The notes: generated by a model not told the origin, from the letters alone. Positions 16,188-32,000 are shown, counted from the first letter of the stretch. The stretch: 32,000 bases of DNA from Candidatus Electrothrix yaqonensis (GCA_047651235.1 CP178758.1:2160001-2192000); one strand, 5' to 3'. Made by a program: numbers and translations.

Positions 16188-16372
16188 TCTGCCCTCCATA
16201 AAAATATTCAGAAAGAATTTAAGTTGCGGGATATTGATCGTACTTAATATCTTGTTGTGAAATATTTTTCTTCGGTCAGCAAGTGGGAATTCTGTTTCGC
16301 AAAAATGAAAGTTAGTACATAGGGAGGAGGGAAAGCCTTTTGGGACGGCCCTGAAATAGGGAGGATCCATCA

Positions 16373-16442
16373 CCTATTCCTGAGGCGGCAGCTGTCCCAT
16401 TTTTCTGCAGCGGTCCGGGGGGATTTTGGGATTCACATAACA
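16373..16442 (-). pseudogene. Relic of an sdhA/frdA 5' end (start codon plus ~23 codons, frameshifted)
   Basis: 16373-16442 aligns with 14665-14736, the first 72 nt of the intact sdhA. The shared core is ctgaRgcggcagYtRtcccattttt(c)gtgcagcggKccggggg(g)gatttttggg...acat. There are two 1-nt indels and roughly 80% identity by hand. Confidence 0.7.
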
Positions 16443-16446
16443 TCTG

Positions 16447-16512
16447 CTCTGTGAATTTTTAGTTACTTGAAAAGCACTTACTCTGTGAATTTAGTTACTT
16501 GAAAAGCACTTA
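16447..16512. repeat. Tandem duplication (34 + 32 nt) spanning the 3' end of the 73-aa gene
   Basis: ctctgtgaatttttagttacttgaaaagcactta (16447-16480) is followed directly by ctctgtgaatttagttacttgaaaagcactta (16481-16512). The second copy contains the last codons and stop of the 16491..16712 gene. Confidence 0.85.
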
Positions 16513-16712
16513 ATATGATATTCGTAAATTTTCTCCTTCTCCTGAAGAGTTAAGTCGTTAACCCACTTTAACTTTTCACTGAAATTCATTTTTCTTGCCT
16601 CTCTCAAAGGACAATTTGGATTTTTTGGATTTTTCCGCCCAACAGGGCATGCTTCTGCCAAAGAGATAAGCATAGCATTATATTCATCTGCAGAATAGCT
16701 ATTTCTTGTCAT
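16491..16712 (-). CDS. Small Cys-containing hypothetical protein (73 aa)
   Basis: AT-rich ORF with CPVGRKNPKNPNCPLR and a C-terminal HIKC. I recognise no family. It is transcribed divergently from the kinase operon. Confidence 0.45.
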   Translation of the reverse strand: MTRNSYSADEYNAMLISLAEACPVGRKNPKNPNCPLREARKMNFSEKLKWVNDLTLQEKEKIYEYHIKCFSSN

Positions 16713-17111
16713 TTTACCGCAATATCAGTTGATTAGCTGCGTAAATCCTTGCAGGCGACGCCAGTCACAGAGCGTTTAAATTCTCATTCCTAAGCAGGCA
16801 AACATGGAAAACCGAATAGTTACTCTGTCAATATCAACCTTTAACTTTTTCTAATTAAAAAGTAAACAGGAAACACCAGTTGACAGGATGGAATGTACCC
16901 ATCCCGGTATCACATTCCAGAATCAAACCGTGCAGCGATACGGGTTACAGAGCGGGGTTGAAGGTACGAATCCCAATTGCCTGTTTTCTCATCTGTCCTC
17001 TGCCCTCTTCAAACCGAACACTTGATTCAGACAGGGTATTTTTTCCGACACAGACTCTGTTACGCGCTGATACTGATTTGAAAATCACGCACCGCCATCA
17101 ACCTCTTGCAT

Positions 17112-17246: not shown

Positions 17247-18749
17247 ATGGCTCAGGTACGCAAGGCCAAAAACAGGAACGGAACCTCTGTCGAATATGTT
17301 GATGAGATCATCGGTTCCGGCGGGATGAAGGATGTTTATTTCACCCCGGACCGCAAGAATGTTGTTGCTTTCTTCCGGGACAAGCAGGATCGTCAGGCTC
17401 TGGAACGCCTTGAAATGATCACCGGCACCTATCGTGAAAAAATTTTCAATCAGGACGGCGGTGCGTACTGGGAGAACCTGTTCCGCTGGCCCACCGAGCT
17501 GGTTGAAGATGAGGATGGCAAAGTGGGTGTGATTGTGCCAACCTATCAGGATCATTTCTTTTTTACCACCGGTTCCATTAATAACGATTTTCTGCAGATT
17601 AAAGGCAGAGAAAAAGAGGGCAAATGGTTTGCTTCGCCAACCAACCGAAACCAGTATCTTGACCCTGCGGAACGCGGCACCTGGCTGGACTACCTGCGTA
17701 TCTCCATTCTGCTCAGCCGGGCGGTGCGGCGGATGCACGCGGCAGGGCTGGCCCATTCCGACCTCTCGTATAAAAATGTCCTGATCGATCCGGTCGGCGG
17801 CAATGCCTGTATTATTGACATTGACGGCCTAGTGGTGCCGGGGAAATTTCCGCCTGATGTGGTGGGCACGCCTGATTTTATTGCTCCGGAAGTCATTGCC
17901 ACGGCCCATCTGGACAGGCAGGATCCGCAGCGGAAACTGCCGTCCATCTATACCGACCGCCATGCCCTGGCCGTGCTGATCTACATGTACCTCCTTCTGC
18001 GCCATCCCTTACGCGGGGATAAGGTGCATGATCTTGACGAGCCGCAGCGCGATGAAGACCTGTCCATGGGCGAGCGCGCCTTATTTGTTGAGCATCCCAC
18101 GGATCAGTCCAACCGGATCAAAACAGAGTATCTCAGGCCCCTGGAAAAACCGTGGAAAGATACAGCCGCCCTGCCCTGTCAGATCGTCGGCCCGTATCTG
18201 GAAAAATTGTTTCACCAGGCCTTTATTGACGGGCTGCACTGTCCGGAAAAACGGCCCACAGCCGATGAATGGGAACAGGCTCTGGTCAGGAGCGTGGATC
18301 TGCTTCAGCCCTGCGTCAATCCCGAATGCGCCCAGAAATGGTATGTGTTCGATAATACAAAATCCCCGAAATGTCCCTTCTGCGGCACCAGATACACGGG
18401 CAAGCTGCCGGTGCTGAATCTGTACTCCAGCCGGCATGGCGGCAAGTTTCTGCCGGATAATCACCGCCTGATGGTCTATACCGGTCAGTCGCTTTTTCGG
18501 TGGCATGTGAACCGGACAGTGGTGCCCAACGAACGCCTGACTCCAAAAGACCGGCAGCGGGTCGGGTATTTCATCTTTCACAACAACAACTGGCTCTTGG
18601 TCAATGAACGGATGCCCGGCTTAATTGACCTGAGTACAAAGCAGCCGGTTCCGGCGGGCGGTAAGATTGTGCTTAAAGAGGGCCGCCAGATTTTGTTTTC
18701 CAAAGAAAACGGCGGTCGACTGGCTCTGGTCCAGCTTGTGGATGCGTAA
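17247..18749 (+). CDS. Atypical Ser/Thr protein kinase with C-terminal zinc ribbon and FHA-like beta-sandwich
   Basis: Kinase motifs: IGSGGMKDVY (Gly loop), HSDLSYKNVLID (catalytic loop), IIDIDG (DFG-equivalent) and GTPDFIAPEV (APE). The Zn ribbon CVNPEC...CPFC follows, then a tail (GQSLFRWHV...FHNNNWLLVNERMPGLIDLSTKQPVPAGGKIVLKEGRQILF) with an FHA-like pattern. Start set at ATG 17247, after GGAGGAGG. Confidence 0.8.
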   Translation: MAQVRKAKNRNGTSVEYVDEIIGSGGMKDVYFTPDRKNVVAFFRDKQDRQALERLEMITGTYREKIFNQDGGAYWENLFRWPTELVEDEDGKVGVIVPTYQDHFFFTTGSINNDFLQIKGREKEGKWFASPTNRNQYLDPAERGTWLDYLRISILLSRAVRRMHAAGLAHSDLSYKNVLIDPVGGNACIIDIDGLVVPGKFPPDVVGTPDFIAPEVIATAHLDRQDPQRKLPSIYTDRHALAVLIYMYLLLRHPLRGDKVHDLDEPQRDEDLSMGERALFVEHPTDQSNRIKTEYLRPLEKPWKDTAALPCQIVGPYLEKLFHQAFIDGLHCPEKRPTADEWEQALVRSVDLLQPCVNPECAQKWYVFDNTKSPKCPFCGTRYTGKLPVLNLYSSRHGGKFLPDNHRLMVYTGQSLFRWHVNRTVVPNERLTPKDRQRVGYFIFHNNNWLLVNERMPGLIDLSTKQPVPAGGKIVLKEGRQILFSKENGGRLALVQLVDA

Positions 18750-18787
18750 TTCTGAACCATATTCAACCTCAAGGAGAATAAACTGAT

Positions 18788-21466
18788 ATGTATCATTTTA
18801 AAGGGCTTACCCGGCAGGAAATCGAGGCCTCGCGTATAAAACACGGTTCAAACCAGCTCAGCGCGGTTGAAACAGAGACCTTCTGGGACAAACTGCTGGA
18901 CAATTTTAAAGATCCCATGATCATCATCCTGACCATTGCCCTGGTTATCGTCACGATACTGGCCGCATTCGGGCAGACAGAATGGTATGAAGGAGTGGGT
19001 ATTGCCTTTGCTGTTGTCTTGGCCACCTTGGTAGCCACGGCATCAGAATTTAAAAACGAGCAGACCTTTCAAAAGCTCCAGGAGGAAGCCTCCAAAATAC
19101 AGATCAATGTCTTCCGGGAGGACAGCGTTACGGTTGTCGGCATTGATGACGTCGTTGTCGGTGATGTTATCCTGCTCCAGCCGGGCGATAAAATTCCGGC
19201 GGACGGCAGGATTCTTGAGGGAAAAGTGGCTGTGAGCCAGGCTGCGCTGACCGGTGAACCTGAACCCCGGGGCAAAACTCCGGGAGAGGCGGATGTCTCA
19301 GATCTGGAAGATGCCCATGCCGTGTTCAGAGGAACCGTGATCGAGGACGGCGAGGCCGTTATGGAAGTGCTGCAGGTTGGTGATAACACCCATCTGGGCA
19401 GACTGGCTGAAGAACTGGAAACCGATGAACGTATGGGACCGCTCCGGGTCAAGCTGGCGCGGCTGGCGCACGGGATTGCCGTGTTCGGTTACATTACCGC
19501 CCCGCTGATCGCTCTGGCCTTCCTGTTCAAGGCGGTCTATCTGGACAACAGCGGCGACATGTCAGCGATAGCAGCGTATGCAGCCGACTGGACGCATCTA
19601 CTCTCTGATATTGTCAAAGCCCTGATTCTTGCTGTCATCATTATTGTGGTGGCGGTTCCTGAAGGACTGCCCATGATGATCGCCATTGTCTTGGCTCAGA
19701 ACATGCGCAAGCTGCTCAGGTCCAATGTCCTGGTCCGGCAACTGCTGGGGGTGGAGACCTCAGGCAGCCTGAACCTACTTTTTACTGATAAAACCGGAAC
19801 GGTTACCAAAGGCCTGTTGGAAACCGTGGGCTTTCTGACTGTAGCAGATACGGACATGAAGGATGCGGTAAGACAGTATGACAGTTTTGAAAAATTGCCG
19901 GAACAGAATGCTAGGCTGCTGGATCTGTCGCTGCGGGAAAATACCTCCAGTGTGGTGAACTGCAAGGCAACTACAGAGTCCGAACGGATTGTGGGCGGCA
20001 ACAGTACGGACCGGGCTTTGCTGAAATTTGTCCATGCAGAGAGCACAGAATGTCAGTATGAGGAGAAAACCACGGAAAAAGTGGATGAACTGCTCTTTAA
20101 TTCGACCAGAAAATTTTCCGCAGTCCGCATCAGAAAAGAAGACGGCCAGGAAATGACCCTGATCAAGGGAGCGCCGGAAAAAATCTTTGCGCAATGCGGC
20201 TCTTTTTATGATAGTCAGGGCAATGTTGCTCCCCTTCCGGCAGAGCGAAAAACAGCCATTGTCCAGACCATTGACAGCAGAACCGATGAGGGATTCCGCC
20301 TGATCGCGGTTGCGGTGACCGAGGAACCAATCCCGGCAAATCTGGATGCGATGACAGGTCAGCTGACCCTGCTGGGATTTGCCATGATCCGCGATGATCT
20401 ACGGCCGGAAGCAGCTGACACAGTGAAAGAACTCCACAGTGCCGGGATCCAGGTGGTCATGATCACCGGTGACCGTAAAGGCACGGCTCAGGCCATTGCC
20501 AAAGAGGCAGGCCTAATCACCTCTCCGGACGATGTTGTCCTGACCTCGGATGAAATGGCCGACCTCTCTGATGATGCCTTAAAGAAGATTATCCCGAATC
20601 TGAAAGTTGTCTCCAGATGCCTTCCTTCGGATAAATCCCGCCTCGTCAAAGTAACCCAGGAAATGGGCCTGGTGGTCGGCATGACCGGAGACGGGGTCAA
20701 TGACAGTCCGGCCCTGAGCAGTGCGGATATCGGCTTCGGCCTGGGAAGCGGCACTGAAGTGGCCAAAGAGGCCTCGGATATCGTGGTGCTTGACGACAAT
20801 ATCCAGTCCATTGCTAATGCGGTTCATTACGGCCGGACGATCTACCATTCCATCCAGAAATTTATCACCTTTCAGCTTACCGTCAATGTGGCGGCAATTT
20901 CCATCGCCTTCCTCGGCCCCTTCTTAGGTTTTGAGCTGCCCCTGACCATGATCCAGCTGCTCTGGGTCAACCTGATTATGGATACCTTGGCTGCTCTGGC
21001 CTTTTCCGGTGAGCCGCCTCTGCCGGAATACATGGAGGAAAAACCGAAAGAGCGGGAAGAACATATCATCACCTCAAGGATGTGGCAGTCCATTTTGGGC
21101 AACGGCTTTTTCATGACCGCAGTCTGTGTCCTGTTTTTGAAAGCATCTTTTGTTCACAACCTGTTTGCCAGCGAGGAGGTCTTTATGACCGCCTTTTTCG
21201 GAATATTTGTCTTCCTGAACAACTTCAACAAGTTTAATGTCCGGGTGGAGGACTGGAAGCTGTTTGATCATCTTTCCGCCAACAAAGGATTTTTACAGGT
21301 GGTCGGAATGATTTTTCTGATCCAGATAGTTATCACCTATATCGGCGGCGAGGTGTTCCGGACTGTTGCTTTGGGAGTACAGGACTGGTTCTGGGTTATT
21401 GTGTTTTCCATTGTTATTGTTCCCTTTGATCTTGCAAGAAAAAGTCTTTTCAACAAGAATAAGTAA
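18788..21466 (+). CDS. Ca2+-translocating P-type ATPase (P2B/PMCA-LMCA1-like, single-site type)
   Basis: N-terminal GLTRQEIEASRIKHGSNQL, TGEPEP, TM4 VPEGLPMM, the phosphorylation site DKTGTVT, MITGD, TGDGVNDSPAL, TM5 FQLTVNVAAISIAF (Ala where SERCA has Glu771) and TM6 LWVNLIMDTLAAL. Confidence 0.88.
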   Translation: MYHFKGLTRQEIEASRIKHGSNQLSAVETETFWDKLLDNFKDPMIIILTIALVIVTILAAFGQTEWYEGVGIAFAVVLATLVATASEFKNEQTFQKLQEEASKIQINVFREDSVTVVGIDDVVVGDVILLQPGDKIPADGRILEGKVAVSQAALTGEPEPRGKTPGEADVSDLEDAHAVFRGTVIEDGEAVMEVLQVGDNTHLGRLAEELETDERMGPLRVKLARLAHGIAVFGYITAPLIALAFLFKAVYLDNSGDMSAIAAYAADWTHLLSDIVKALILAVIIIVVAVPEGLPMMIAIVLAQNMRKLLRSNVLVRQLLGVETSGSLNLLFTDKTGTVTKGLLETVGFLTVADTDMKDAVRQYDSFEKLPEQNARLLDLSLRENTSSVVNCKATTESERIVGGNSTDRALLKFVHAESTECQYEEKTTEKVDELLFNSTRKFSAVRIRKEDGQEMTLIKGAPEKIFAQCGSFYDSQGNVAPLPAERKTAIVQTIDSRTDEGFRLIAVAVTEEPIPANLDAMTGQLTLLGFAMIRDDLRPEAADTVKELHSAGIQVVMITGDRKGTAQAIAKEAGLITSPDDVVLTSDEMADLSDDALKKIIPNLKVVSRCLPSDKSRLVKVTQEMGLVVGMTGDGVNDSPALSSADIGFGLGSGTEVAKEASDIVVLDDNIQSIANAVHYGRTIYHSIQKFITFQLTVNVAAISIAFLGPFLGFELPLTMIQLLWVNLIMDTLAALAFSGEPPLPEYMEEKPKEREEHIITSRMWQSILGNGFFMTAVCVLFLKASFVHNLFASEEVFMTAFFGIFVFLNNFNKFNVRVEDWKLFDHLSANKGFLQVVGMIFLIQIVITYIGGEVFRTVALGVQDWFWVIVFSIVIVPFDLARKSLFNKNK

Positions 21467-21511
21467 TTCCTGCCGAACAGACGCGAAGGCGTCCGCAGGA
21501 GCAATCTTCAT

Positions 21512-21558
21512 CCCGGACTGATCTCTCATCCGTCATCAGTCCGGGGCAGTACTTTTTT
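21512..21558 (+). terminator. Rho-independent terminator after the ATPase gene
   Basis: A perfect 11-bp stem pairs CCCGGACTGAT (21512-21522) with ATCAGTCCGGG (21535-21545) around a 12-nt loop. T6 lies at 21553-21558. Confidence 0.65.
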
Positions 21559-21578
21559 CCGTTGATCCTTGATAAACG

Positions 21579-22592
21579 ATGATAAACCATGCGCGATTTT
21601 TTTTTATACAGCGAGATAACAATCCTTTACGAAAAGAGGCATTTACCGCTTCTTTCCTCGGCAAACTGCATCCGGCCCGGCTCCCGCATCTGCAGCGCGG
21701 GAGCTGCTGTCTGGCCCGGTTACTCCGGGCATCCCTTGCCGAACTCCCGGTTTCCGGTAATGTCCTGCTCATCGGTCTGACAGAATCCGGCATTGTTCCT
21801 TCTTTTCTGATGTATCTGGAAGCCTGTCAATTAAACATTCCATGCCGATGGATCTGTTCAACCCGCCGGCTAGGTGAATCCGGGGTCGTTTTTGAGGAAA
21901 CACACTCGCACAGCCCGAATCATACCCTACCGATACCGGAGGCCAGTTTCTCGGAAGTCTGGATTGTCGAAGATGAAATCACCACAGGCCGGACAATACA
22001 GAATCTCCTGCACCAGCTCCAGGATCATGTTGCCGCCCAGATCTTCCGCATATTTTCTCTGGTGGATTTCCGGTCTGCACAGCAGCAGCAAGGTTTTTTA
22101 TCGTTGTTGGATGATCAGACAACAACATATCTTTTTCATACGGCCGTCCATTTGTCCGATATGCAGGGCGACAGCGCTGACTATCCGGATGACTTGGCAG
22201 AAAAAAGCACATATTCATCCGGATATCCTGAATATCTGCTCCCGAAGTTAGCCCCGTCATGCGGTCTGCGATGGAATCAGATACCGCCGGAATCTGCCGA
22301 TGCAACTCTGTTTGTTCTTGGGGAAGCAGTGCATACAGCAGTGCTGCTGGTGGCTGCCGGGAAATTCCGGGATTTTCAGCACATCACCCTCAGTCCGTGG
22401 CTGGTGGATGCATGCAGTATCAGGAGCAGAATAGACCTGCCCGGAAAGCATTATCTCTATAATACAACGAAGCAGGAACTCCGGTCGCCTGTCTTTCTCC
22501 TGCACGATCCGGCAGATCAGGCGATGAGCAGCAAAGTACACAGGGAGCTGGAAGGACAGGGCATACCTGTTCAGCAACTGCACCTTTTATAA
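21579..22592 (+). CDS. Ter-associated phosphoribosyltransferase (PRTase_2 + TRSP-type architecture)
   Basis: PRPP-binding loop VWIVEDEITTGRTIQNLL. Upstream are FLGKLHPARLP and LLIGLTESGIVPS. The C-terminal ~150 aa extension is consistent with the TRSP domain seen C-terminal to this PRTase class in Ter loci. The first in-frame start is 21579, and no SD is evident. Confidence 0.65.
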   Translation: MINHARFFFIQRDNNPLRKEAFTASFLGKLHPARLPHLQRGSCCLARLLRASLAELPVSGNVLLIGLTESGIVPSFLMYLEACQLNIPCRWICSTRRLGESGVVFEETHSHSPNHTLPIPEASFSEVWIVEDEITTGRTIQNLLHQLQDHVAAQIFRIFSLVDFRSAQQQQGFLSLLDDQTTTYLFHTAVHLSDMQGDSADYPDDLAEKSTYSSGYPEYLLPKLAPSCGLRWNQIPPESADATLFVLGEAVHTAVLLVAAGKFRDFQHITLSPWLVDACSIRSRIDLPGKHYLYNTTKQELRSPVFLLHDPADQAMSSKVHRELEGQGIPVQQLHLL

Positions 22593-22620
22593 TTTCTACA
22601 ACCCTCAGCAATCAGATACC

Positions 22621-23622
22621 ATGCAGCAGGCAATCCTTCCGGATGCGGAAAACAATTTCTGGCAACAGTATATTTATGTCGATCTGCGGGAAGAGGTGCA
22701 TCCTTTTAACGAAATGCACCGCTTCCGCAGATTGGAACAGGCCTACACCGGCGAAAACACCTTCTGGTCCATTCCTTCTCCGGAACCGGATCTGGATGAT
22801 ACCTTCTGGCAGCATGTGCATGACCAGCTGGACAATAAACAGATCCGGAGGGCAGCACAGCAGCTGGCTGCCGTCATTCTACAGTGGGAAGCGGATCCGG
22901 AGCAGCTTATTTTTGTCGCCATTCTCAGGGCCGGGGTGCCTATTGCAAAGTGGCTCTGTCAGATGCTGCCCGGAGCAGTGAGTGCCGCCATATCGCTTTT
23001 TGTCGGCATCGGCATTGACCGGCAGGCCCTGGCCCGGCTGCAGGCAGATTTCCCGGACCGGAAGATTGTTTTTGTTGACGGTTGGACAGGGCGCGGCGGG
23101 GTTGCCAGAGAACTTGCCCGGCTTGATAAAGGGCCTTTGGCGGTGCTCAATGATCCCTGGGGCTGGGCAGATTTTTCCGGCATTCAGGAGGATATATTCT
23201 GCCCTTCCGCCTGTTTCACCGGCCTGACAACGCTTGGTTTTTCCAGAACCTTTTTTGTGGATGAGCAGCATTTCTTTGCTGCGTACAGATTTCCGGAATC
23301 CCACACCCGCAAAGATCTGGTTGATGCTTGGTGCACAGCCGGACCTGCACAGCCGACCCGCCCTGCTGCGGAAAAATGCAGACATTTTCATCAGGAAACC
23401 GAGCTGCGTATCCACAGCAATGAAGTCTGCCGGGCCTTGATTAATGCTGCGCCCAAGACCCTCTTTTTTACGGATGACGCCCGATATGCTGAGGAGCACT
23501 TCCCTCTGCTGCTGCTTCTGGCGGAACAGCGGGGCGTACCGGTGGAGTATAATCAGACATTTTTAAATAAATATCGTACCCGCGCTGCCTGTTCTCTGCG
23601 TATTGAACAGCTGAAAGCCTAA
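22621..23622 (+). CDS. Ter-associated phosphoribosyltransferase, PRTase_1 type (family often mis-annotated as cysteine protease StiP)
   Basis: LIFVAILRAGVPIAKWL and the PRPP-loop-like IVFVDGWTGRGGVAREL. Size (~330 aa) and its position next to the other PRTase match the Ter biosynthetic module as I remember it. Confidence 0.6.
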   Translation: MQQAILPDAENNFWQQYIYVDLREEVHPFNEMHRFRRLEQAYTGENTFWSIPSPEPDLDDTFWQHVHDQLDNKQIRRAAQQLAAVILQWEADPEQLIFVAILRAGVPIAKWLCQMLPGAVSAAISLFVGIGIDRQALARLQADFPDRKIVFVDGWTGRGGVARELARLDKGPLAVLNDPWGWADFSGIQEDIFCPSACFTGLTTLGFSRTFFVDEQHFFAAYRFPESHTRKDLVDAWCTAGPAQPTRPAAEKCRHFHQETELRIHSNEVCRALINAAPKTLFFTDDARYAEEHFPLLLLLAEQRGVPVEYNQTFLNKYRTRAACSLRIEQLKA

Positions 23623-23672
23623 GATTATACTTGTATAAAATGGATAAATAAAACAAGAACAAGGAGGCTGAT

Positions 23673-24428
23673 ATGGCAGTATGTGTTTTTTGTAAACAGG
23701 AAGAAGGAAATCCGTCCTGTGCGTTCTGTAAAGGTAAAGGAACTCCCGCGACAAAGAAGAGAGCTTCTTCTGCTGAAAAAACGAATACACCCATCCCTAA
23801 ACAGACTGGCCAGATATCTCTCAAGAAAGGCGGTCGCCCTGTTCTTATTCAAAAAACACCTAAAATTACAGCAACTGTCTCCTGGAAAAGCGGCACAGAT
23901 TATGACATATATGCTCTGGTTATGCTTAAAAACGGGGAAGAAATTGCAGTTGCAACATTTGGTGCCATTTTAAAAGAGAAAGGATTGTTTGGGAAAAAAC
24001 ATAGGATTCCTCCCCTTATGAACTTTGGAAACGGTGCGGTAAGTCATCGTGGTGACGTCGTAGGCCGTGGCTCAGAAAAAGGCTTTGAGATTATTGATAT
24101 TCGACTAAATGACGATATTGTTGCAGTTGTTCCAGTGGCGTATTCTGCACAGTCAAACGGGACAGGGTCCTTCTACCGTTACCGTGTTACATTGGAAATT
24201 AACAACAATCAAGGAACGACCGTCACTCTTCCGGCTGAAACTGCGAACAATAATGATCTTATTTATACTTGTGTACCGGGGATTATCTATAATTATCCGA
24301 ACGGCATTCAAATTGAAGCACTTGAACTCTACAGTAAACCAGGTTCTGAGAATCGACCAAAACTCCAGCTTGACAACAACAAAGTTACTGTGCTGATGGA
24401 TATGGGAGCAAAAAATGAATATAAATGA
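23673..24428 (+). CDS. Divergent TerD-domain protein with N-terminal CxxC-x8-CxxCxGxG zinc knuckle
   Basis: N-terminus MAVCVFCKQEEGNPSCAFCKGKG, then a basic linker, then a TerD-like core (ISLKKGGRPVLI...ATVSWKSGTDYDIYALVMLKNG...HRGDVVGRGSEKGFEIIDIRL...YRYRVTL). A strong SD (AAGGAGG) is present. The gene looks AT-richer than its neighbours by eye. Confidence 0.65.
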   Translation: MAVCVFCKQEEGNPSCAFCKGKGTPATKKRASSAEKTNTPIPKQTGQISLKKGGRPVLIQKTPKITATVSWKSGTDYDIYALVMLKNGEEIAVATFGAILKEKGLFGKKHRIPPLMNFGNGAVSHRGDVVGRGSEKGFEIIDIRLNDDIVAVVPVAYSAQSNGTGSFYRYRVTLEINNNQGTTVTLPAETANNNDLIYTCVPGIIYNYPNGIQIEALELYSKPGSENRPKLQLDNNKVTVLMDMGAKNEYK

Positions 24429-24458
24429 ATATCCAACCCCAACTCGCTGGATCTGCTG

Positions 24459-25205
24459 ATGAGAAAAAACACACTGCATTCGCAGAATAAAGCCGTTGCC
24501 GTTGATCTTGACGGTACCTTGGTGCATACGGTGCCGGGGGAATATACCATACCGGGGCGCTCCGGAAACTGTTATCTGTCGCATCGGGCAGTTGAGTTGT
24601 TAGCCGAAATCAGCCGCACCCTGCCGACCTTTATTACAACCGGCAGGAATGCGGCGAGCGTTCAGAAGATAATCCGGCATCTTGAAAAGGTACGTTTTGT
24701 GGGCTTTATCCTGGAAAATGGTTTTGTGGTCAAAAAGGACCTCCGCAGCCCTGATCCTCGAAAAGAGAAGTGGAAATTTGCAGACAAGGTACCGCCGGAC
24801 TGGGAACCCATTCCGGGGTATGAGCGTTCTGCCGGGTTTATCCTGCCCAGAGGACAGAAAAATCCGGCAGAGCTTGTCCGGAATCTATTAAAAGAGACTC
24901 GGGAGCAGGGGTATATCCATTTAAACCAACCGAAAATTTTTGTCTATCCTCAGGAGCCGGATAAAATGCAGGGGCTTGCCGAATTCAATGTCCGGCCGCA
25001 CATAGCACTGGGGAACGATATCAACGATACCCAGCTGATGCAGGCAAGTACCTATCCGGTTACTTTACAGGCTGCACATTCTTCCATCAAAAAAATAGCA
25101 GAAAAAAAGGACGGATACTGTTCACCCTTTGCCGACCATGCCGCAGCAGAGGATATGCTGCGCTGGGCCTGCACCAAGTTATCTGCCCTGTCTTCCTCGT
25201 CCTGA
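24459..25205 (+). CDS. HAD-superfamily phosphatase (Cof/IIB-like)
   Basis: Motif I VAVDLDGTLV, motif II ITTGRN, motif IV LGNDINDTQLM. Confidence 0.75.
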   Translation: MRKNTLHSQNKAVAVDLDGTLVHTVPGEYTIPGRSGNCYLSHRAVELLAEISRTLPTFITTGRNAASVQKIIRHLEKVRFVGFILENGFVVKKDLRSPDPRKEKWKFADKVPPDWEPIPGYERSAGFILPRGQKNPAELVRNLLKETREQGYIHLNQPKIFVYPQEPDKMQGLAEFNVRPHIALGNDINDTQLMQASTYPVTLQAAHSSIKKIAEKKDGYCSPFADHAAAEDMLRWACTKLSALSSSS

Positions 25206-25220
25206 CCTTCCCCTGATCTC

Positions 25221-26525
25221 ATGCGGGATAATGAACATATCACGAGTAATATAAAAGAGTTTCCCGATTCATTCTATCTGCCGAAATATGCAGATGATAT
25301 GTTGTCCCGATACGGAAAACATATTGACATTCTCCTGTCCGAAGGCATCCGCCCCCTTCCGGAACGGCTAACCGCTTTCTTTGCCGTCTCGCCTCAGGGA
25401 AGGTATACAAAAAAAGGAATGGATCAGGCCTTTGTTGCTGCGGAAGGGTTCTCGGGCGTCAACCCCGGTGAACAGGCGGATTATGACCAGGGGGTTCCTC
25501 GGCTGACCGAAGTGGATGTCAGCAGGGCCTTGCAGAAAAATCCGGCCAACAGGCAATGGCTTGTCCTGAGCCTGGAGCGCACAGCGCAGAGATACGGCCT
25601 TGCTCTGTCCGGTGATCTCATACAGAGTAGCTCGCAGTTACTTGATTTTTTGTATCATGAAATTTCGTTCTGGGAGGCAGACAGCTTTCCGTTGGATGCC
25701 ATGATGGACCTGACCAATCAATACCACTGGACCTTCCGATCAGATGCCTGGTCGTTGCGGGAACAGCTGCGGCGGGAGGCCCTGATTATCCATGCTGCCT
25801 GGAAAGAACTGCTCAGACTGTCCCGTCAGCATCCCCTCTTCCTCATCCTTAACCAGGCGACCCCCACGGATTATTTCTGCAGTGCATTACCGCAGGGTGC
25901 ATCCCTGTTTGCACAAGGGACTGATCAGAGTGAGCAGCAGATCCTTGTCTCTGCGGACATCAAGATATCCTCTTCCGAGCACCGGGATACTCTCCAGAAA
26001 ACCTCTGAAGGCGATGCGCTTGAGCAGGCAGTGGAGATCGCCTGTACCGTACAGCGGGTTCCTGTTGTATGTGATCTGTCACGCCGTCGTTTTCCGCGTT
26101 CTTTCCTGCGAATAGCCCGATTTGCCCAGTGCAGAGGCTGGGGGATCCAGCCGCTGGGCAAGCTGGCAGACCCTGCAGCAACACAGCTGCCGCAGGCAAA
26201 ATCCTGTTCCGGCTTTCCGGTCCTGTCCGGTCATCCTGAGCTGCTCCTGTTTGACCCGTGGCCTATCTCGGATACGCAGATCGTGCCGGAACTGCCTCCG
26301 GATATTTCGGATAGGTTTGTGACTGCTCCGCAGACAAAACCCTGGCAGGATGATCGGATCGGGGCAAGAAATGAGCTGGAAATGGATGAACACGGACAGT
26401 ACCGTGCCGGAGCGCAAAGCTGGGTACTGCCTGTTCCGGGCGGCTGGATGCGGGTGCATGATCTGTTCAAAAGTCGCATGGCCCGGTTCCTGCGCGGGAT
26501 GGATTCGTCGCTGTATATTATCTAG
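25221..26525 (+). CDS. Hypothetical protein, 434 aa, no recognisable domain
   Basis: A long ORF tightly packed between the two HAD genes (15-nt and 14-nt gaps). Its codon usage resembles that of its neighbours. I see no motif I can assign. Confidence 0.6.
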   Translation: MRDNEHITSNIKEFPDSFYLPKYADDMLSRYGKHIDILLSEGIRPLPERLTAFFAVSPQGRYTKKGMDQAFVAAEGFSGVNPGEQADYDQGVPRLTEVDVSRALQKNPANRQWLVLSLERTAQRYGLALSGDLIQSSSQLLDFLYHEISFWEADSFPLDAMMDLTNQYHWTFRSDAWSLREQLRREALIIHAAWKELLRLSRQHPLFLILNQATPTDYFCSALPQGASLFAQGTDQSEQQILVSADIKISSSEHRDTLQKTSEGDALEQAVEIACTVQRVPVVCDLSRRRFPRSFLRIARFAQCRGWGIQPLGKLADPAATQLPQAKSCSGFPVLSGHPELLLFDPWPISDTQIVPELPPDISDRFVTAPQTKPWQDDRIGARNELEMDEHGQYRAGAQSWVLPVPGGWMRVHDLFKSRMARFLRGMDSSLYII

Positions 26526-26539
26526 AAATCTGAACACTT

Positions 26540-28525
26540 ATGCAACAAAAAACAGTCTTTGTTTTTGATCTTGATGGGACCATGAATCATGCCGCGCCTG
26601 TGCCCGGCGGCTTACCCATTCGGGGCCGAACAACCGATTCGTTTCTGGATGGGCGGGTTATTGAGCTGCTACTCGAACTTGCAGAGGTGACCGATCTGTA
26701 TGTTGCGACCGGCAGGTCACGGACAACCGTCGAGGATTTCAGGAGTCATTTTTCTGCTGCCGGTATCCGGATTTCCGGCTGGATACTGGAGCACGGCACC
26801 CAGATTAAGGGCCACCCAGCCTGGACGGAAAAAGTCCTGACCGGGATCGATCTTGTTGCGGTTCATGCCCGGGCCGGAGAAATTATTCAGAAGAACGGTT
26901 ATACCATTGATACGGAATGCTACCGGGAGGCGCATCAGTCCATTCTGCTGTACTCCGGCAGGGACCGGTGCGAGGCCGAAGCACTGCTGTCCCGGCTTGC
27001 CGGTGTACTGAACAACCGCTTCAGAACCATTGTCGGCTCCCGGAAGATTGTCCTTATTCCCAAAGGTGGCGATAAATATGCTGCTTTCCAAGCCGTGTTC
27101 GGAAAAACGCATACTCTCTGCTGTGCAGCCGGTGATATGCCAGATGACCTGACCCTGTTGCGCCACGCAGCTTTTCCTCTGACCCTGCGGAGCGCTTCCC
27201 CCCTTGTGCAGAGATATGTGGAGGAGCGCGGCGGTTTTGTCGCTGCCGAGGGCGGGCATGAGGGGACGGCAGAAGTTCTCCGGGCGGCCCTGGCATATTT
27301 CCGGGGTAAACATTCCGGGCTGCCTGTGCCTGGTCCGCGCCTGCCTGTGGAAGAGATGGAATCCTTCCGGCCTTCCCGATGCAGTTTTCTGGACCGGCTG
27401 TTCCGCGATGTTCGGTTTCCTGAACAAGAACCGGATATTGATCGGATCAGGCAGGCAGCCTCTCAGCTTGATGGAGGCAGAAATACTGTTGTTGAAGTAC
27501 GGATGCGGGACTGGGGCGGAGAAGCGAAATCTTTGCGCAGCCTGCTCAACGCAATGGTTCCGCTTATTCCGTATGCGCACTGGCGGCTTGTCTTTCGGCA
27601 GGAACGTCTTGGTGCAGACAATCTGCAGGATTTTCAGGTCATCACGGCTCGACTGGCCGATTTCTCTTTGCTGCCCGACGGGACGCACCGTTTTTCTGCG
27701 CCCGGTGTGCCGAACTCGCCACAAGAAGAAAGGGAATCCGCAATAACCTTATTGCTCTATGATCATCCGGAGGATATGGGGCCTTGGTATGATCATGCTG
27801 TACCCCGGCTGATAACCCGCCATCCGCAGGATACTACAGCTTGGTTTATCAATCCGATGTTTCTGAAGATTTCCGGCATCAGCACTGGACTGACCAGTAA
27901 GAATCGTGCTGCCCGGCAGATACACTATGCAGGCCCCAAGGTCATGATGGCGGCAAATATCGTCGATGACACGGATATCCGGATTGCCGTGCAGGGATTC
28001 GAGCAGTTATCCCCTGCTCTGGACGCGCTTATTCTTGCACCCCGTGTGGTAACCAATCCGCAGCGCAATAAAAAAATCAGAGAAGCTGCAGCCTCTGTCA
28101 GCAAAGAGATATCCTTTCTTTCCCGGCTCTCCCCGACAGACCGCCCCCGTATCCTCCTGGTCGATACCTACGGTGACTTAGAAAATTTGTATACCCATTG
28201 CTGCATAACCTATCTGGGTGGCGGCTTTGACCCGAGAAAACGAGGTTTTGATCCTATGGAATCTCTGGCTGCCAAGGTACCGGTTATTTTGGGGCCGCTC
28301 TATGATTTCAACCGGATAGCAGTAGACTCGTTCAGGCAGACCGGGTGGGTAAATATCCTTACGCAGGAAGAAACCGGTGTAGAGGATTTTGTCGGCATCG
28401 CTAAAAATTTACTGAAGCGTAAACCGGATGGCCGGACATTACACAATGTTTTGCAAATCCGAAGATTGGATACCCTGCGTATTGCAGAGGAACTGCTGCA
28501 GGATTTTGCAAAAACAGGGGGATGA
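26540..28525 (+). CDS. Fusion protein: N-terminal HAD phosphatase + C-terminal GT-B glycosyltransferase resembling Kdo transferase (WaaA/KdtA, GT30)
   Basis: HAD motifs VFVFDLDGTMNH, VATGRS and AAGDMPDDLTLL. The C-terminal RILLVDTYGDLENLYTHCCITYLGGGFDPRKRGFDPMESLAAKVPVILGPLYDFNRIA aligns by eye with the WaaA pattern GDSMGEL..LY..AD.AFVGGSLV..GGHNPLE.AA...PV..GP....F..I. Confidence 0.65.
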   Translation: MQQKTVFVFDLDGTMNHAAPVPGGLPIRGRTTDSFLDGRVIELLLELAEVTDLYVATGRSRTTVEDFRSHFSAAGIRISGWILEHGTQIKGHPAWTEKVLTGIDLVAVHARAGEIIQKNGYTIDTECYREAHQSILLYSGRDRCEAEALLSRLAGVLNNRFRTIVGSRKIVLIPKGGDKYAAFQAVFGKTHTLCCAAGDMPDDLTLLRHAAFPLTLRSASPLVQRYVEERGGFVAAEGGHEGTAEVLRAALAYFRGKHSGLPVPGPRLPVEEMESFRPSRCSFLDRLFRDVRFPEQEPDIDRIRQAASQLDGGRNTVVEVRMRDWGGEAKSLRSLLNAMVPLIPYAHWRLVFRQERLGADNLQDFQVITARLADFSLLPDGTHRFSAPGVPNSPQEERESAITLLLYDHPEDMGPWYDHAVPRLITRHPQDTTAWFINPMFLKISGISTGLTSKNRAARQIHYAGPKVMMAANIVDDTDIRIAVQGFEQLSPALDALILAPRVVTNPQRNKKIREAAASVSKEISFLSRLSPTDRPRILLVDTYGDLENLYTHCCITYLGGGFDPRKRGFDPMESLAAKVPVILGPLYDFNRIAVDSFRQTGWVNILTQEETGVEDFVGIAKNLLKRKPDGRTLHNVLQIRRLDTLRIAEELLQDFAKTGG

Positions 28526-28541
28526 AAAGATGTCCCCCTGT
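28508..28541 (-). terminator. Terminator for terD (possibly bidirectional), overlapping the stop codon of the convergent HAD-GT gene
   Basis: A 9-bp GC-rich stem pairs ACAGGGGGA (28514-28522) with TCCCCCTGT (28533-28541) around a 10-nt loop. On the minus strand the hairpin is followed by TTTTTGC. Confidence 0.6.
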
Positions 28542-28560
28542 TTCCACAACAAAAAAACGA

Positions 28561-29142
28561 TCAGGCCGCACTTACGCCGTATTTTGCGCAGACCTGCCCA
28601 AGCCCTTCCTCTGATCCCTGCCCTACAGCCTTAAACTTCCATTCGCCGTTTTTAAGATACACTTCGCCAAATATCACTGCGGTCTCCTTAAAAAAATCTT
28701 CAGTCAGGTCGTAACGCGTAATTTCCACATCATCGACTGCGTTGACAATCCGAATAAAGGCATTCTCCACCATCCCGAAGTTCTGACCGCGTTTGTCTGC
28801 TTCGTGAATTGTCACCACAAATACGGCTTTAACCAGTTCCGGGGGCATATCTTTCAGCGACATCATGATGACCTCGTCATCCCCTTCACCTTCGCCGGTC
28901 AGGTTATCCCCGGTATGGACAACAGCACCATTGGCGCCCTGCAGGTTGCCGTAGAAAATAAAATCCTGGTCACCCGTCACTTTGCCGTCCGCACCGCAAA
29001 GAAATATCGAGGCATCAAGATCAAACTCAGCCCCGCCCAGAGCTTGGGCATCCCAGCCGCAGCCGACCTTGATGGCTTCCAGTCCCGGAGCTTCTTTGCT
29101 CAAAGAAATATTGGCGCCTTTTTTTAATGATAATACAGCCAT
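28561..29142 (-). CDS. terD: TerD-family tellurite/stress resistance protein (canonical, Ca2+-binding motifs intact)
   Basis: MAVLSLKKGANISLSKE, FDLDASIFLCGADGKV, GDNLTGEGEGDDEVI, ENAFIRIVN and EWKFKAVGQG. It is collinear with TerD/TerE/TerZ. Confidence 0.92.
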   Translation of the reverse strand: MAVLSLKKGANISLSKEAPGLEAIKVGCGWDAQALGGAEFDLDASIFLCGADGKVTGDQDFIFYGNLQGANGAVVHTGDNLTGEGEGDDEVIMMSLKDMPPELVKAVFVVTIHEADKRGQNFGMVENAFIRIVNAVDDVEITRYDLTEDFFKETAVIFGEVYLKNGEWKFKAVGQGSEEGLGQVCAKYGVSAA

Positions 29143-29198
29143 GTCTTTTCTCCTTGTCAGTTATGTTTCCAGTTGTCAGGTTGTTGGTCAACGCCTGC

Positions 29199-29891
29199 TT
29201 ATTTTCTTCCTGTTCCTTTGCAGAACACACAGTTTCCGCCTGCACCTTTGCACATAGGGCATGGAACACCTGTCGGCGACGGTCCCGGCTGTGACGGTGG
29301 TGATGAAGGCGTCTGTCGGGGAGGAGGCGGTGCTGAAGACGGCAGGGCCTTCGGTGCCGACTTCGGGGCTGACCCGGTATTGAGGGACAGATTGAATTCT
29401 CCGGCCAGCGAGTGGACATCCACCCGTATGACTTGGGCATGACGTTCAATACAGGCCTGCTCTTGGGGGTCACAATCCCCGTCAGCAGCGGCAACTGCCA
29501 GAGCACAGAGAATGACCAGTCTGGCCAGTTCCGGATCCTCAATATTTCGGACAGCCAAGAGAATAGCCTCCTCATCGCAGAGAAAAGCCGATACCGCATA
29601 GTGCTCCATCTTCTTGACGAGTTCATCTATGCTGAACATTTCCAAGATAGGAGTATCCCGACAATTCTGCAACAGAAATTTACGGAATTCTTCCAATTCT
29701 TCCCGGTACAGCCGCCCGTTCTGCGAGGCAACATCGCCGACTACGGCACAGAGTGCCTCGACAAACGGCTCAAATTTTTTCCGTTTAAACCTATTCCCGA
29801 TTCCTTTGAATGCATTGCCCACGCCGCCGATAAAATCAGCAGATGAGTTGACCATCTGCTCTCCGGTCCGCCCCCAATTTCTTTGCGCCAT
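29199..29891 (-). CDS. terB: TerB-domain protein with Pro-rich linker and C-terminal CxxCxGxG-x2-CxxCxGxG zinc knuckle
   Basis: RFKRKKFEPFVEALCAVVGDVASQNGRLYREELEEFRKFL and LVILCALAVAAADGDCDPQEQACIERHAQ align with E. coli TerB as remembered. The C-terminus is SAPPPPRQTPSSPPSQPGPSPTGVPCPMCKGAGGNCVFCKGTGRK. Confidence 0.8.
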   Translation of the reverse strand: MAQRNWGRTGEQMVNSSADFIGGVGNAFKGIGNRFKRKKFEPFVEALCAVVGDVASQNGRLYREELEEFRKFLLQNCRDTPILEMFSIDELVKKMEHYAVSAFLCDEEAILLAVRNIEDPELARLVILCALAVAAADGDCDPQEQACIERHAQVIRVDVHSLAGEFNLSLNTGSAPKSAPKALPSSAPPPPRQTPSSPPSQPGPSPTGVPCPMCKGAGGNCVFCKGTGRK

Positions 29892-30170
29892 TGTATGGCC
29901 CTCCCTCTTTTTGTCTCAAAAATACACCGGAACATACTGATCTTTCCTTTGTTCTAACTGCTCTGCGCGCAATCCCGAACAACTCCACCCGGACAACAGT
30001 CTGCGGAAGATATCTCAGGGAGTCAGCATTTACAGTCTATCAGAAATAAAGTATAAATCAAATGGTTGTATGCGTTCCCCGTTCTCTATAGCTCTTCGGC
30101 AGAATTCCTGCAATAAGATTATGTATCTCCGACCGCATTTCTCCGATAATGAATCACTACTGCACGACTG

Positions 30171-32000
30171 ATGAAGATTTCATTTTCGCTCCGCCTTAAG
30201 CTCGCCCTTCTTTCCCTGCTGCTCCTGCTTTTCCCTTTCCTGGGTATGCGCTTGAACGATTCCCTGAAAAACAGCCTGATCACCAGTCAGCAGGATACGC
30301 TCTCTCTGACTGCCCAGGCTGTCTCAGCTGCCCTGACCGACCGGCACGACCTTTTTGTCCGGGAACAGTTCCATGAGCTGAATCAGGACCGTGACCTGTA
30401 TCTGTTTCAGCTTTCCAATACGATCAGACTGAACGGCAATCTGGATGACTGGCGTCCGGAACTGAGCGAAGCCGAAGAGTTTGCCAGCGAGCATCTGATC
30501 AGTTCGGACGGCAGCTATACCCTGCGGACCCTCAACTTCCGCCATCTTGCCGGAAAGCAGGACAAATATCTGTATGCCCTGTTTGATGTGCAGGACGATC
30601 ATGTGGTGTACAGAAGCAGAAATTCGCTGCGTCTTGATCGGTCAGATCATCTGCAGGTTGTGATCGGCGATGAAACAGAACAACGAAAATACTTCATCAC
30701 AGCCCATGCCCAGGGCTGGGTCAACGGGTTCCTGATGCCGAACAATCCGATCAAATTTCCTGTCAGTGAACAGAGGATTCAGGGGGTATGGAAGCAGAAC
30801 GATAAAGGCTATATTATTGAAATACGGATTCCGCTGGAACTGCTTGATGATAAGCTAGCCTTTACCGTTGCGGATGTGGATGATGAAAAAAGCCGGAAGA
30901 TCAAAACTTTGATCGGGACATCCAACCTGAATGAAAACAAGGCACCCGGCTGGCTGCTTTCCACCTCCACTTCCATCGAAGAGCTGCTCAAATCGCTTGA
31001 CCGTCCTTATGCGCGAATCAGGATTGTTGACCGTAATCAGCGGGTCAGAGCTCAGGTCGGCAGCCTGCGGACCTCCAAAGAAATTCGCACAGAACCGGAC
31101 AGCTTCTCTTCCCGCATCAATGAGTTCCTTCACCCTTTGTATCGTTTCTTCATTGATCCTTTTCTTATCGAATTCCAGGATCAGGCTTCCCAGCCCACGG
31201 AACTTGATCTGCAGGGCATTAAAGAAGGGCTTGAAGGCCGCCATTCCATTACCAGCTACCTGATGGAGGACGGGCAGGTGGAGGTCATGGCAGCAATTAC
31301 CCCCCTGTATGAACAGGAAAAGATCATCGGCGCAGTGGTGGTGGAGCAGACCACCAACTCTATCCTCTCCCTGAGCAACCGCTTGATCGAAGAAACGATC
31401 TCCCTGTCCGTGATCGCCTTTCTGTTCGGCGGCGGGATACTGCTTCTGTTCGCCTTCCGTATTTCAGCCAGAATCCGCCGGCTGCGCAATCAGGCCGCCT
31501 CCGCAATCACCCCGGACGGCCGTATCCGTAACACCGTCAACAGAGACGGATCCGGTGATGAAATCGGTGATCTGGGCAGGACCCTGGATTCCATGCTCAA
31601 CCAGCTGCAGCAGCAGATTGAACATCGGGAGCAGATGGCGGATAACTTGGAACACGAGATGCGCACCCCGCTGGCCGGAATTGCCGCATCCCTGAAAAAT
31701 TTACACCAGGAACAGCTTACGGAAAATCCTGCGGACAATATTATAGAGTATATCCAATGGGCAGAGCGCGATGTCATGCGGATGGAGGAGCTGCTGACCT
31801 CAATCCGGGAAGCAACCAGCCTGAAAAACGCTCTGGTGCAGGAAAGTATGGAAGAGCTGGATCTCGGCAGGGCAATTTCCATGTGGCTTGAACATGGATG
31901 GCGGCTCAGCTTCAGCGGAGTTAACTTGGTGTATCAGGGCCCTGAGCAAGAGATTCCGGTCAAAGGCGACCCGGTCAGGCTGCGTCAGGCTCTGGACAAA
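30171..32000 (+). CDS. Sensor histidine kinase (periplasmic sensor domain + TM + HAMP + HisKA), partial, runs off window end
   Basis: The frame is open from ATG 30171 to base 32000 (610 codons). It is absent from the ORF track, presumably because no stop is reached. N-terminal TM LKLALLSLLLLLFPFL, then a ~370-aa extracytoplasmic region, then a second TM ISLSVIAFLFGGGILLLFAF. The HAMP region contains GDEIGDLGRTLDSMLNQL, the H-box is LEHEMRTPLAGI, and the sequence ends VKGDPVRLRQALDK. Confidence 0.8.
   Translation, partial: MKISFSLRLKLALLSLLLLLFPFLGMRLNDSLKNSLITSQQDTLSLTAQAVSAALTDRHDLFVREQFHELNQDRDLYLFQLSNTIRLNGNLDDWRPELSEAEEFASEHLISSDGSYTLRTLNFRHLAGKQDKYLYALFDVQDDHVVYRSRNSLRLDRSDHLQVVIGDETEQRKYFITAHAQGWVNGFLMPNNPIKFPVSEQRIQGVWKQNDKGYIIEIRIPLELLDDKLAFTVADVDDEKSRKIKTLIGTSNLNENKAPGWLLSTSTSIEELLKSLDRPYARIRIVDRNQRVRAQVGSLRTSKEIRTEPDSFSSRINEFLHPLYRFFIDPFLIEFQDQASQPTELDLQGIKEGLEGRHSITSYLMEDGQVEVMAAITPLYEQEKIIGAVVVEQTTNSILSLSNRLIEETISLSVIAFLFGGGILLLFAFRISARIRRLRNQAASAITPDGRIRNTVNRDGSGDEIGDLGRTLDSMLNQLQQQIEHREQMADNLEHEMRTPLAGIAASLKNLHQEQLTENPADNIIEYIQWAERDVMRMEELLTSIREATSLKNALVQESMEELDLGRAISMWLEHGWRLSFSGVNLVYQGPEQEIPVKGDPVRLRQALDK

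Follow-up and report, generated by a model that had tools for sequence, protein, structure and literature searches.

Ten consecutive genes at positions 17247–29891 of a 32,000-nucleotide (nt) stretch of the Candidatus Electrothrix yaqonensis genome (GCA_047651235.1, CP178758.1:2160001–2192000; the whole stretch is called the window, and the genome of this cable bacterium is labelled YB6) are, with moderate confidence, best read as a Desulfobacterota-specific variant of the Ter stress-response system, in which enzymes and TerC have been swapped and which would work in the way proposed below. The locus begins with genes for a Ser/Thr kinase and a Ca2+-exporting ATPase, continues with a block encoding PRTase_2, StiP, a Zn-knuckle protein, a HAD phosphatase, an orphan protein of 434 amino acids (aa) and a fusion of a HAD domain and a glycosyltransferase (HAD/GT), and ends with terD and terB on the opposite strand (Table 1). 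Membership of the Ter family, as judged from sequence, is secure through TerD, TerB, PRTase_2, StiP, HAD and the kinase, and the locus is classed as a variant and not as a canonical member because ATP-grasp, HpcH/HpaI, TerC and TelA were searched for and not found.

Conservation of a five-gene module

The neighbourhoods of orphan homologues were collected by exact-protein look-ups and by genome and metagenome scans, and the ten window proteins were mapped onto them by tblastn. The five genes PRTase_2–StiP–HAD–orphan–HAD/GT are intact and in the same order in eight loci of Desulfobulbales and Desulfobacterales, namely the window, L001 (Desulforhopalus vacuolatus), L004, L011 (Desulfocapsa), L013 (Desulfobacteraceae), L026 (Electrothrix Rat3), L029 and L032, and the gene set is thus co-conserved across genomes. 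Partial copies lie at contig ends in L012, L023 and L031, an orphan–HAD/GT–TerD arrangement is found at a contig start in L033, and in L027 (Ca. Electrothrix aarhusensis) the operon is broken by a restriction-modification insertion. The HAD/GT gene adjoins the orphan gene in most loci, TerD genes are near in most of the loci that carry the module, and almost all copies of the module come with TerB or TerD plus a Ca2+ exporter. The conserved gene order across loci indicates that the adjacency is not accidental.

Outside a swap of the Ca2+ exporter and an insertion of the Zn-knuckle gene, the remainder of the locus is collinear with Rat3 with 71–79% DNA identity. Judged from these alignments the YB6 locus is a derived form, with a plasma-membrane Ca2+-ATPase (PMCA) type gene in place of PgpA and Na_Ca_ex, with the Zn-knuckle gene inserted and with TerY and PP2C absent.

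Displacement of the Ca2+ exporter

The ATPase contains five P-type ATPase Pfam domains and the DKTGT phosphorylation motif, and its sequence identifies it as a PMCA-type Ca2+ P-type ATPase with a predicted transport specificity. The gene takes the exact position of PgpA and Na_Ca_ex in Electrothrix Rat3, and in the DNA alignment with Rat3 the segment 18749–21581 of the window, containing the ATPase gene and the hairpin downstream of it, stands in place of these two genes. As read from the alignment, this is a recent replacement by non-orthologous displacement at a precise breakpoint. Na_Ca_ex is located directly upstream of PRTase_2 in seven loci (L001, L004, L011, L013, L026, L027 and L029), and a PMCA-type ATPase is found in two, upstream of the module in the window and downstream of HAD/GT in L032, where the homologue is 60% identical; a Ca2+ exporter is present in nine of the ten loci with enough flanking sequence. 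The suggestion that a Ca2+ pump belongs to the set therefore holds for an exporter as such, although the usual partner is Na_Ca_ex and the PMCA is recent. Because the PMCA replaces PgpA and Na_Ca_ex at one and the same position the link to Ca2+ is strengthened, with the exchanger as the usual partner, and the repeated recruitment of two unrelated Ca2+ exporters, which a functional Ca2+ link would predict, is the strongest new evidence.

The gene for phosphatidylglycerophosphatase A (PgpA) adjoins the Ca2+ exporter gene in L013 (3793–4263), L026 (5435–5914), L029 (5425–5910) and L032 (8748–9239), whereas the window has lost it along with Na_Ca_ex. The genomes of jumbo gut phages carry several strongly transcribed genes for TerD proteins as well as one for a Ca2+-translocating P-type ATPase (PMC12880540); this is an independent co-occurrence, and the link is not drawn by the authors of that paper.

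Relation to known Ter systems

Ter loci are widespread, with virulence plasmids and jumbo phages among their carriers, and are linked to resistance against tellurite, phages and colicins. A Ter system with a five-enzyme biosynthetic module was reportedly described by Anantharaman, Iyer and Aravind in 2012, and to our knowledge both the biochemical function of Ter and the predicted "nucleoside-like metabolite" have been hypothetical since then. The ter plasmids of Klebsiella and E. coli carry terZABCDE(F), a module of ATP-grasp–PRTase–HAD–StiP–HpcH/HpaI, and the array TerY–TerX–TerY–TerY_C–PP2C–kinase; the module of the Klebsiella plasmid consists of ATP-grasp, PRTase, a hypothetical protein of 257 aa, StiP and HpcH/HpaI, and the 257-aa protein shows a marginal match to the HAD of the window. 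Like the five-enzyme system the window has TerD, TerB, PRTase_2, StiP/PRTase_1, a HAD and a Zn-ribbon kinase of about 500 aa, but it has no ATP-grasp, HpcH/HpaI, TerC, TerA/Z/E array, vWA or PP2C, and their places are taken by the orphan, the HAD/GT30-like fusion and the Ca2+ exporter, together with two Zn knuckles, one fused to a TerA C-terminal domain and one on TerB. The canonical five-enzyme module is summarised in PMC11994780, according to which TerB accompanies the biosynthetic module and minimal modules of PRTase and HAD only exist; the window contains what that paper uses to define a minimal module, at least one Ter-type PRTase and a HAD phosphatase.

The absences had been noted, and no ATP-grasp, C-C lyase (HpcH/HpaI), TerC, TelA, TerY/vWA or PP2C was found within the window. 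For ATP-grasp and HpcH/HpaI there is no Pfam or NCBIfam match in any of the ten proteins, and TerC and TelA have no match among the 24 open reading frames (ORFs) scanned across the window, which is a part of a 3.7-Mb genome. The architecture was not found described in Pfam, NCBIfam, PADLOC or the searchable literature, in agreement with the view that the combination is new, and neither the YB6 genome paper nor the other papers on cable bacteria mention Ter genes or the locus; a brief mention in Anantharaman 2012 is possible.

The kinase

The kinase shows 64% identity over all 498 residues to the kinase of a Klebsiella pneumoniae ter plasmid, which is the last gene of a vWA–TerD–vWA–TerY_C–PP2C–kinase array, and 73% identity to the kinase of L004, which directly follows vWA, vWA/TerY_C and PP2C. 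The start codon, ATG at 17247, agrees with the N-termini of the orthologues, and HSDLSYKN, DIDG and APE are recognisable as its catalytic motifs. The C-terminus has a Cx4C..CxxC Zn ribbon, conserved in the orthologues and followed by a beta-rich tail, and this C-terminal region is conserved in the Klebsiella kinase. An FHA-like part had been proposed for the kinase, and the Pfam FHA profile has no match in it at an expect value (E) below 0.01. By sequence it is a canonical Ter-locus kinase, and the Zn ribbon agrees with the description of TerY-P kinases in PMC11090510. It is thus an orthologue of the kinase of the TerY-P triad, with the Zn ribbon kept, but it stands alone in the window, where tblastn with the vWA proteins of L004 and with the PP2C proteins of L004 and L026 found nothing, and no remnants of vWA or PP2C genes were found upstream of the kinase gene. 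In L004 the genes vWA–vWA/TerY_C–PP2C–kinase are located directly upstream of the PRTase_2–StiP–HAD–orphan–HAD/GT module, and Electrothrix Rat3 retains PP2C. The lack of TerY and PP2C is therefore a trait of this genome and not of the variant in general.

In the region upstream of the kinase gene where related loci have PP2C and vWA genes, the window has a divergent gene (14877–16373, minus strand) encoding a 498-aa TPM-domain protein (PF04536, 145 bits) with an N-terminal signal or transmembrane segment, further transmembrane segments, a Cys-rich Zn-ribbon-like C-terminal part and a tail of GGS repeats. The gene is held in a stretch of low GC content, 15001–17000, with 42–44% GC compared to about 53% elsewhere. 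A stretch of 82 nt upstream of the kinase gene (16893–16974 in the window, 3109–3190 in L026) is 73% identical between YB6 and Rat3 in otherwise unrelated DNA, and may be a regulatory element.

The PRTase_2, StiP, HAD and Zn-knuckle genes

PRTase_2 has the motif VWIVEDEITTGRT, which resembles a phosphoribosyl pyrophosphate (PRPP) loop, and is conserved in at least eight related loci. StiP belongs to PF11202, the family formerly named PRTase_1, and is 59–66% identical in related loci. To the StiP of the Klebsiella ter plasmid the identity is 26.5%, yet the kinases of the same two loci (17247–18749 in the window, 20961–22460 in L028) share the 64% given above, which would mean that conservation is very uneven or that the kinase was transferred horizontally. 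The HAD gene is conserved beside StiP in related loci, and motif I (DLDGT) and motif IV (GNDIND) are readable in its product; both HAD domains of the locus have an intact motif I (DxDGT).

The 251-aa product of the Zn-knuckle gene had been labelled TerD-like, a label in need of revision. The protein has no Pfam match, PF02342 (TerD) included. It starts with a CxxC-x8-CxxCxGxG knuckle followed by a domain with 57% identity to residues 183–411 of Bacillus TerA-type proteins. In these Bacillus "TerA/TerD family" proteins the recognisable TerD domain is the N-terminal half, and the C-terminal domain is the part present in the 251-aa protein. An hhalign comparison with a small TerD alignment gave a weak match over about 100 residues (probability 35%, E 4e-4). 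From these comparisons the protein combines a Zn knuckle with the C-terminal domain of a Bacillus-type TerA. In the DNA alignment the segment 23602–24492 has no counterpart in Rat3, and Electrothrix AX5 has the gene with 85% identity; on this pattern the gene is a lineage-specific insertion, limited to YB6 and AX5. A stand-alone protein with the TerA C-terminal domain, 61% identical to the 251-aa protein, is encoded in L030 (3512–7270) among genes for vWA-TerF-like, GmrSD_C, DUF1833 and NlpC/P60 proteins, a phage-tail-like setting that may be that of a phage or prophage.

The orphan protein and the HAD/GT fusion

Homologues of the orphan are few, 55 among 5.8 billion clusters, and all those with a named organism belong to Desulfobulbales or Desulfobacterales; a profile search of 1.84 billion representatives gave only 13 proteins. 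In a scan of 41 members of the family no Pfam match came up even at E<5. An AlphaFold2 (AF2) model has a mean predicted local distance difference test score (pLDDT) of 91.3 and a predicted template modelling (TM) score of 0.91, the N-terminal half being helical and the C-terminal half alpha/beta, and Foldseek found no significant match to it in PDB (best E 0.18) or BFVD, while a profile search of PDB sequences gave noise (E>0.4). The possibility that the orphan is a divergent ATP-grasp or TIM barrel was rejected, since there is no such Foldseek match and no Pfam match at the limit given above. About 70 positions are invariant and rich in Arg, Asp and Lys, including the motifs SRRR, KxSSEHR and QDDR, and these residues would suit a phosphorylated substrate. 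Three remote homologues (P0226, P0227 and P0228) all have a C-terminal HAD (Hydrolase_3/S6PP) domain, which ties the orphan to HAD-IIB phosphatases by fusion besides adjacency. These proteins are 721–1137 aa long, with the orphan domain followed by the HAD domain, and P0226 (source assembly GCA_018812785.1) has an N-terminal array of repeats of about 33 residues (…LSPEQIIALFDKIIDQ…).

The HAD/GT protein has weak sequence matches to HAD-IIB and KdtA. NCBIfam KdtA models score 21–36 bits against cutoffs of 363–590, the best being 35.6 against a cutoff of 438, and there is no match to Pfam GT30 (Glycos_transf_N). The AF2 model, based on an alignment of 40 sequences, has a pLDDT of 93.1. The nearest Foldseek neighbours of the N-terminal HAD-IIB part are sucrose-phosphatase (1s2o, E 3e-9), trehalose-6-phosphate phosphatase and phosphomannomutase. 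For the C-terminal 400 residues, of GT-B type, the best match is WaaA (2xci, E 9e-11, TM score on the target 0.53), and the match to the CMP-Kdo-binding domain of 4bfc has an E of 2.6e-8 and a TM score on the target of 0.68. The GT motif GGG..G-F-D-P-x-E is invariant in the alignment. The Foldseek matches thus support the predicted HAD–GT30-like fusion at the level of fold, below the sequence cutoffs of the GT30 family. WaaA/KdtA (GT30) is the best structural match of the C-terminus, and the glycine-rich nucleotide-sugar-binding motif with a conserved Glu is common to both, but the protein of the window is fused to a HAD, falls below the sequence cutoffs and is encoded in a Ter operon instead of a lipopolysaccharide locus. 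The combination of GT-B with HAD-IIB, and the sucrose-phosphatase and trehalose-6-phosphate phosphatase neighbours of the HAD, recall the sugar-phosphate synthase/phosphatase enzymes of trehalose-6-phosphate and sucrose-phosphate synthesis; however, the GT of the window is nearest to WaaA/KdtA (GT30, with CMP-Kdo as donor) and not to GT20 or GT4, the order is HAD followed by GT, and the obligatory partner is the orphan.

TerD and TerB

TerD carries the motif GDNLTGEGEGDDE, which we take to be a Ca2+-binding site; published TerD structures have Ca2+-binding sites. Rat3 and E. aarhusensis have orthologues with 84% identity in the corresponding position. TerB has a Pro-rich linker and, at its C-terminus, a double CxxCxGxG Zn knuckle. 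This knuckle, CPMCKGAGGxCVFCKGTG, is conserved across three Electrothrix genomes, but the 151-aa TerB of Desulforhopalus lacks it. Zn knuckles had been proposed for both Ter proteins; within the locus they are present on TerB and on the 251-aa protein, with none on the 193-aa TerD. TerB adjoins HAD/GT in seven loci (the window, L001, L011, L013, L024, L026 and L027), in L032 the two genes for PgpA and the ATPase stand between HAD/GT and a downstream TerB, and in L003 it is near a lone orphan gene.

Layout of the locus and other features of the window

Gene calls were checked against the window coordinates, and families were assigned by Pfam and NCBIfam profile searches. All ten ORFs of the original prediction, which was made from the DNA alone, are present at 17247–29891, and its assignments to the PRTase, HAD, PMCA, TerD, TerB and kinase families are supported by the profiles. 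The six genes of the block 21579–28525 are tightly spaced, as it had stated, with gaps of 28, 50, 30, 15 and 14 nt. It had also placed a terminator between the ATPase gene and this operon, where a hairpin at 21511–21546 folds with -21.1 kcal/mol (z = -5.3, and none of 200 shuffled sequences folds equally well) and is followed by a T-run after a spacer of 6 nt. A scan for consensus terminators made no call here because the loop is longer than 8 nt. The hairpin with its T-run is a probable intrinsic terminator that would separate the ATPase gene from the biosynthetic operon. Scans of the window with Rfam and for tRNAs found none, and there is no riboswitch upstream of the operon. A promoter-like site at 29919–29890 is probably a chance match, given its overlap with the conserved terB start codon.

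Table 1. Genes and signals of the Ter-type locus in the window
Feature	Position	Strand	Basis
Ser/Thr kinase, Ter-locus (TerY-PP2C-kinase triad) type	17247..18749	+	Pkinase 33.9 bits
PMCA-type Ca2+-exporting P-type ATPase	18788..21466	+	TIGR01517 610 bits, cutoff 507
Hairpin and T-run, probable intrinsic terminator	21511..21558	+	folding
PRTase_2, Ter-type phosphoribosyltransferase	21579..22592	+	PF15609 66.9 bits
StiP / PRTase_1-family protein	22621..23622	+	PF11202 82.8 bits
Zn knuckle and TerA C-terminal-type domain, 251 aa	23673..24428	+	sequence identity to Bacillus TerA-type proteins
HAD-IIB (Cof-type) phosphatase	24459..25205	+	Hydrolase_3 42 bits; TIGR00099, TIGR01484
Orphan, 434 aa	25221..26525	+	no Pfam family
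HAD-IIB and GT-B (WaaA/KdtA-like) fusion, 661 aa	26540..28525	+	structure model, weak sequence matches
TerD, 193 aa	28561..29142	-	PF02342 252 bits
TerB with C-terminal Zn knuckle	29199..29891	-	PF05099 37.4 bits, cutoff 24.4

The genes flanking the locus within the window are housekeeping genes. At 2632–4842 on the plus strand, between argJ and a cluster of peptidase M20, GCS2 and gamma-glutamyltranspeptidase genes, a 736-aa protein is encoded that consists mostly of MORN repeats (12 stretches, 331 bits). Downstream of terB, at 30171–32000 on the plus strand and running off the end of the window, is a gene whose position is not conserved in Rat3; it encodes a sensor histidine kinase that combines a CBM9-like periplasmic domain with HAMP and HisKA domains.

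Proposed pathway and alternative explanations

The identities of the genes, their co-conservation and the history of replacement are shown by the sequences; the chemical and signalling steps of the mechanism are all inferred from what is known of the protein families. The variant would retain two PRPP-dependent enzymes and the HAD phosphatase, with the orphan and the HAD-IIB/GT30-like fusion in place of the ATP-grasp and citrate-lyase-like enzymes, and a dedicated Ca2+ exporter in place of TerC. PRTase_2 and StiP would make a ribonucleotide-like compound from PRPP, which the orphan and the GT-B domain would modify and glycosylate while it is still phosphorylated, and the HAD-IIB domains would then strip the phosphate(s), following the synthase-then-phosphatase logic of trehalose-6-phosphate and sucrose-6-phosphate. 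The product and Ca2+ would be bound or sensed by TerB and the Ca2+-binding TerD, the exporter would reset cytoplasmic Ca2+, and the Ter-type kinase would regulate the system, in the relatives jointly with vWA/TerY and PP2C. A bolder version, which we regard as improbable, is that the orphan is an enzyme of a previously unseen fold which together with HAD/GT turns a PRPP-derived nucleotide into a glycosylated nucleoside-like compound, the ligand of TerB and TerD, Ter being a Ca2+-signalling system; if so, TerD and TerB with bound ligand would be coupled to the export of Ca2+, by Na_Ca_ex or PMCA here and by TerC in other Ter systems.

Several observations weigh against a variant Ter system working in this way. 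In at least seven loci (L002, where it is split, L005, L008, L016, L018, L019 and L036) the orphan and HAD/GT pair is found by itself, and the surrounding several kb contain neither PRTase nor Ter genes, indicating that the pair can use a substrate that is not PRTase-derived; in view of these loci a single linear pathway of ribosylation, dephosphorylation and glycosylation may be called plausible and is proposed as such. StiP is reported to be a protease and not a PRTase in Reichert 2013, to the extent that this work is cited in PMC11994780. In Rat3 (L026, about 7199–7230) a stop codon interrupts the PRTase_2 frame where the protein of the window has Arg6, and no gene is called, so that either the true start would be downstream or the gene may be decaying. 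In L023 no Ca2+ exporter was found in 3.4 kb upstream. In E. aarhusensis HAD and orphan are replaced by a complete type I restriction-modification system (HsdM, HsdS and HsdR; L027 3150–9929) between StiP and HAD/GT with the rest kept, and some lineages therefore either can do without the operon or are losing it. Together the solitary pairs and the losses indicate that the pair is an autonomous cassette which has been recruited into the Ter locus stably but not irreversibly.

The solitary pairs, which lie in unrelated contexts, also favour an explanation with two independent cassettes in one operon, a minimal PRTase_2–StiP–HAD Ter module and a self-sufficient orphan and HAD/GT pathway that would make, for example, a glycoside or a compatible solute from common phosphorylated metabolites and not from a PRTase product, and that would simply accompany Ter genes in some lineages. 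This agrees with the existence of minimal Ter modules of PRTase and HAD only (PMC11994780), and with HAD-IIB plus GT-B being the classic sugar-phosphate synthase/phosphatase architecture, with sucrose-phosphatase and trehalose-6-phosphate phosphatase as neighbours of the HAD. We consider it possible but rather unlikely, as the five genes keep a constant order with gaps of 14–50 nt in eight loci of two orders, HAD/GT is followed by TerB also in loci with other upstream genes, and of the four further loci that have the orphan without HAD/GT one (L003) has it adjoining TerB. That the ten genes are adjacent by accident and form no functional unit is extremely unlikely: recent rearrangements in YB6, and nothing else, speak for it, but the order is conserved in at least eight loci of Desulfobulbales and Desulfobacterales, and Ca2+ exporters have been displaced by non-orthologous genes in place.

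The locus might also be primarily an anti-phage or conflict system, where the kinase, in relatives with TerY and PP2C, would sense infection, the operon would make a nucleoside-like signal or toxin, and Ca2+ flux would be part of the response. TerY-P-like triads act as stand-alone defence according to Gao 2020 as cited in PMC11090510, and the ter operon has been implicated in phage inhibition (PMC7824862, PMC8123226). The type I restriction-modification system inside the E. aarhusensis operon, the transposases flanking L029, and the TerA C-terminal-like gene of L030 beside vWA-TerF-like, GmrSD_C and phage-tail-like genes point in the same direction. However, defence-validated TerY-P triads carry an OB-fold kinase and not a Zn-ribbon kinase (PMC11090510), housekeeping genes flank the locus in the window, and a search of PADLOC-DB 2.0 for a known defence system gave nothing system-specific, with generic matches to the kinase of at most 24.5 bits, none for the other nine proteins, and none for the vWA and PP2C proteins of L004. 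A primary role of this kind is unlikely in our view; it would be compatible with the variant Ter system and not exclusive of it, and the evidence decides neither for nor against a defence role as such.

Significance

A different set of enzymes around the same PRTase core narrows down the steps that would be essential, and the displacement between Na_Ca_ex and PMCA is genomic evidence for Ca2+ export as a part of the system, in keeping with the Ca2+-binding sites of TerD. New chemistry may be sought in the two small lineage-restricted families, one of which has a confidently modelled structure that matched no other, and the variant gives a testable Ca2+ hypothesis for what Ter systems may do.

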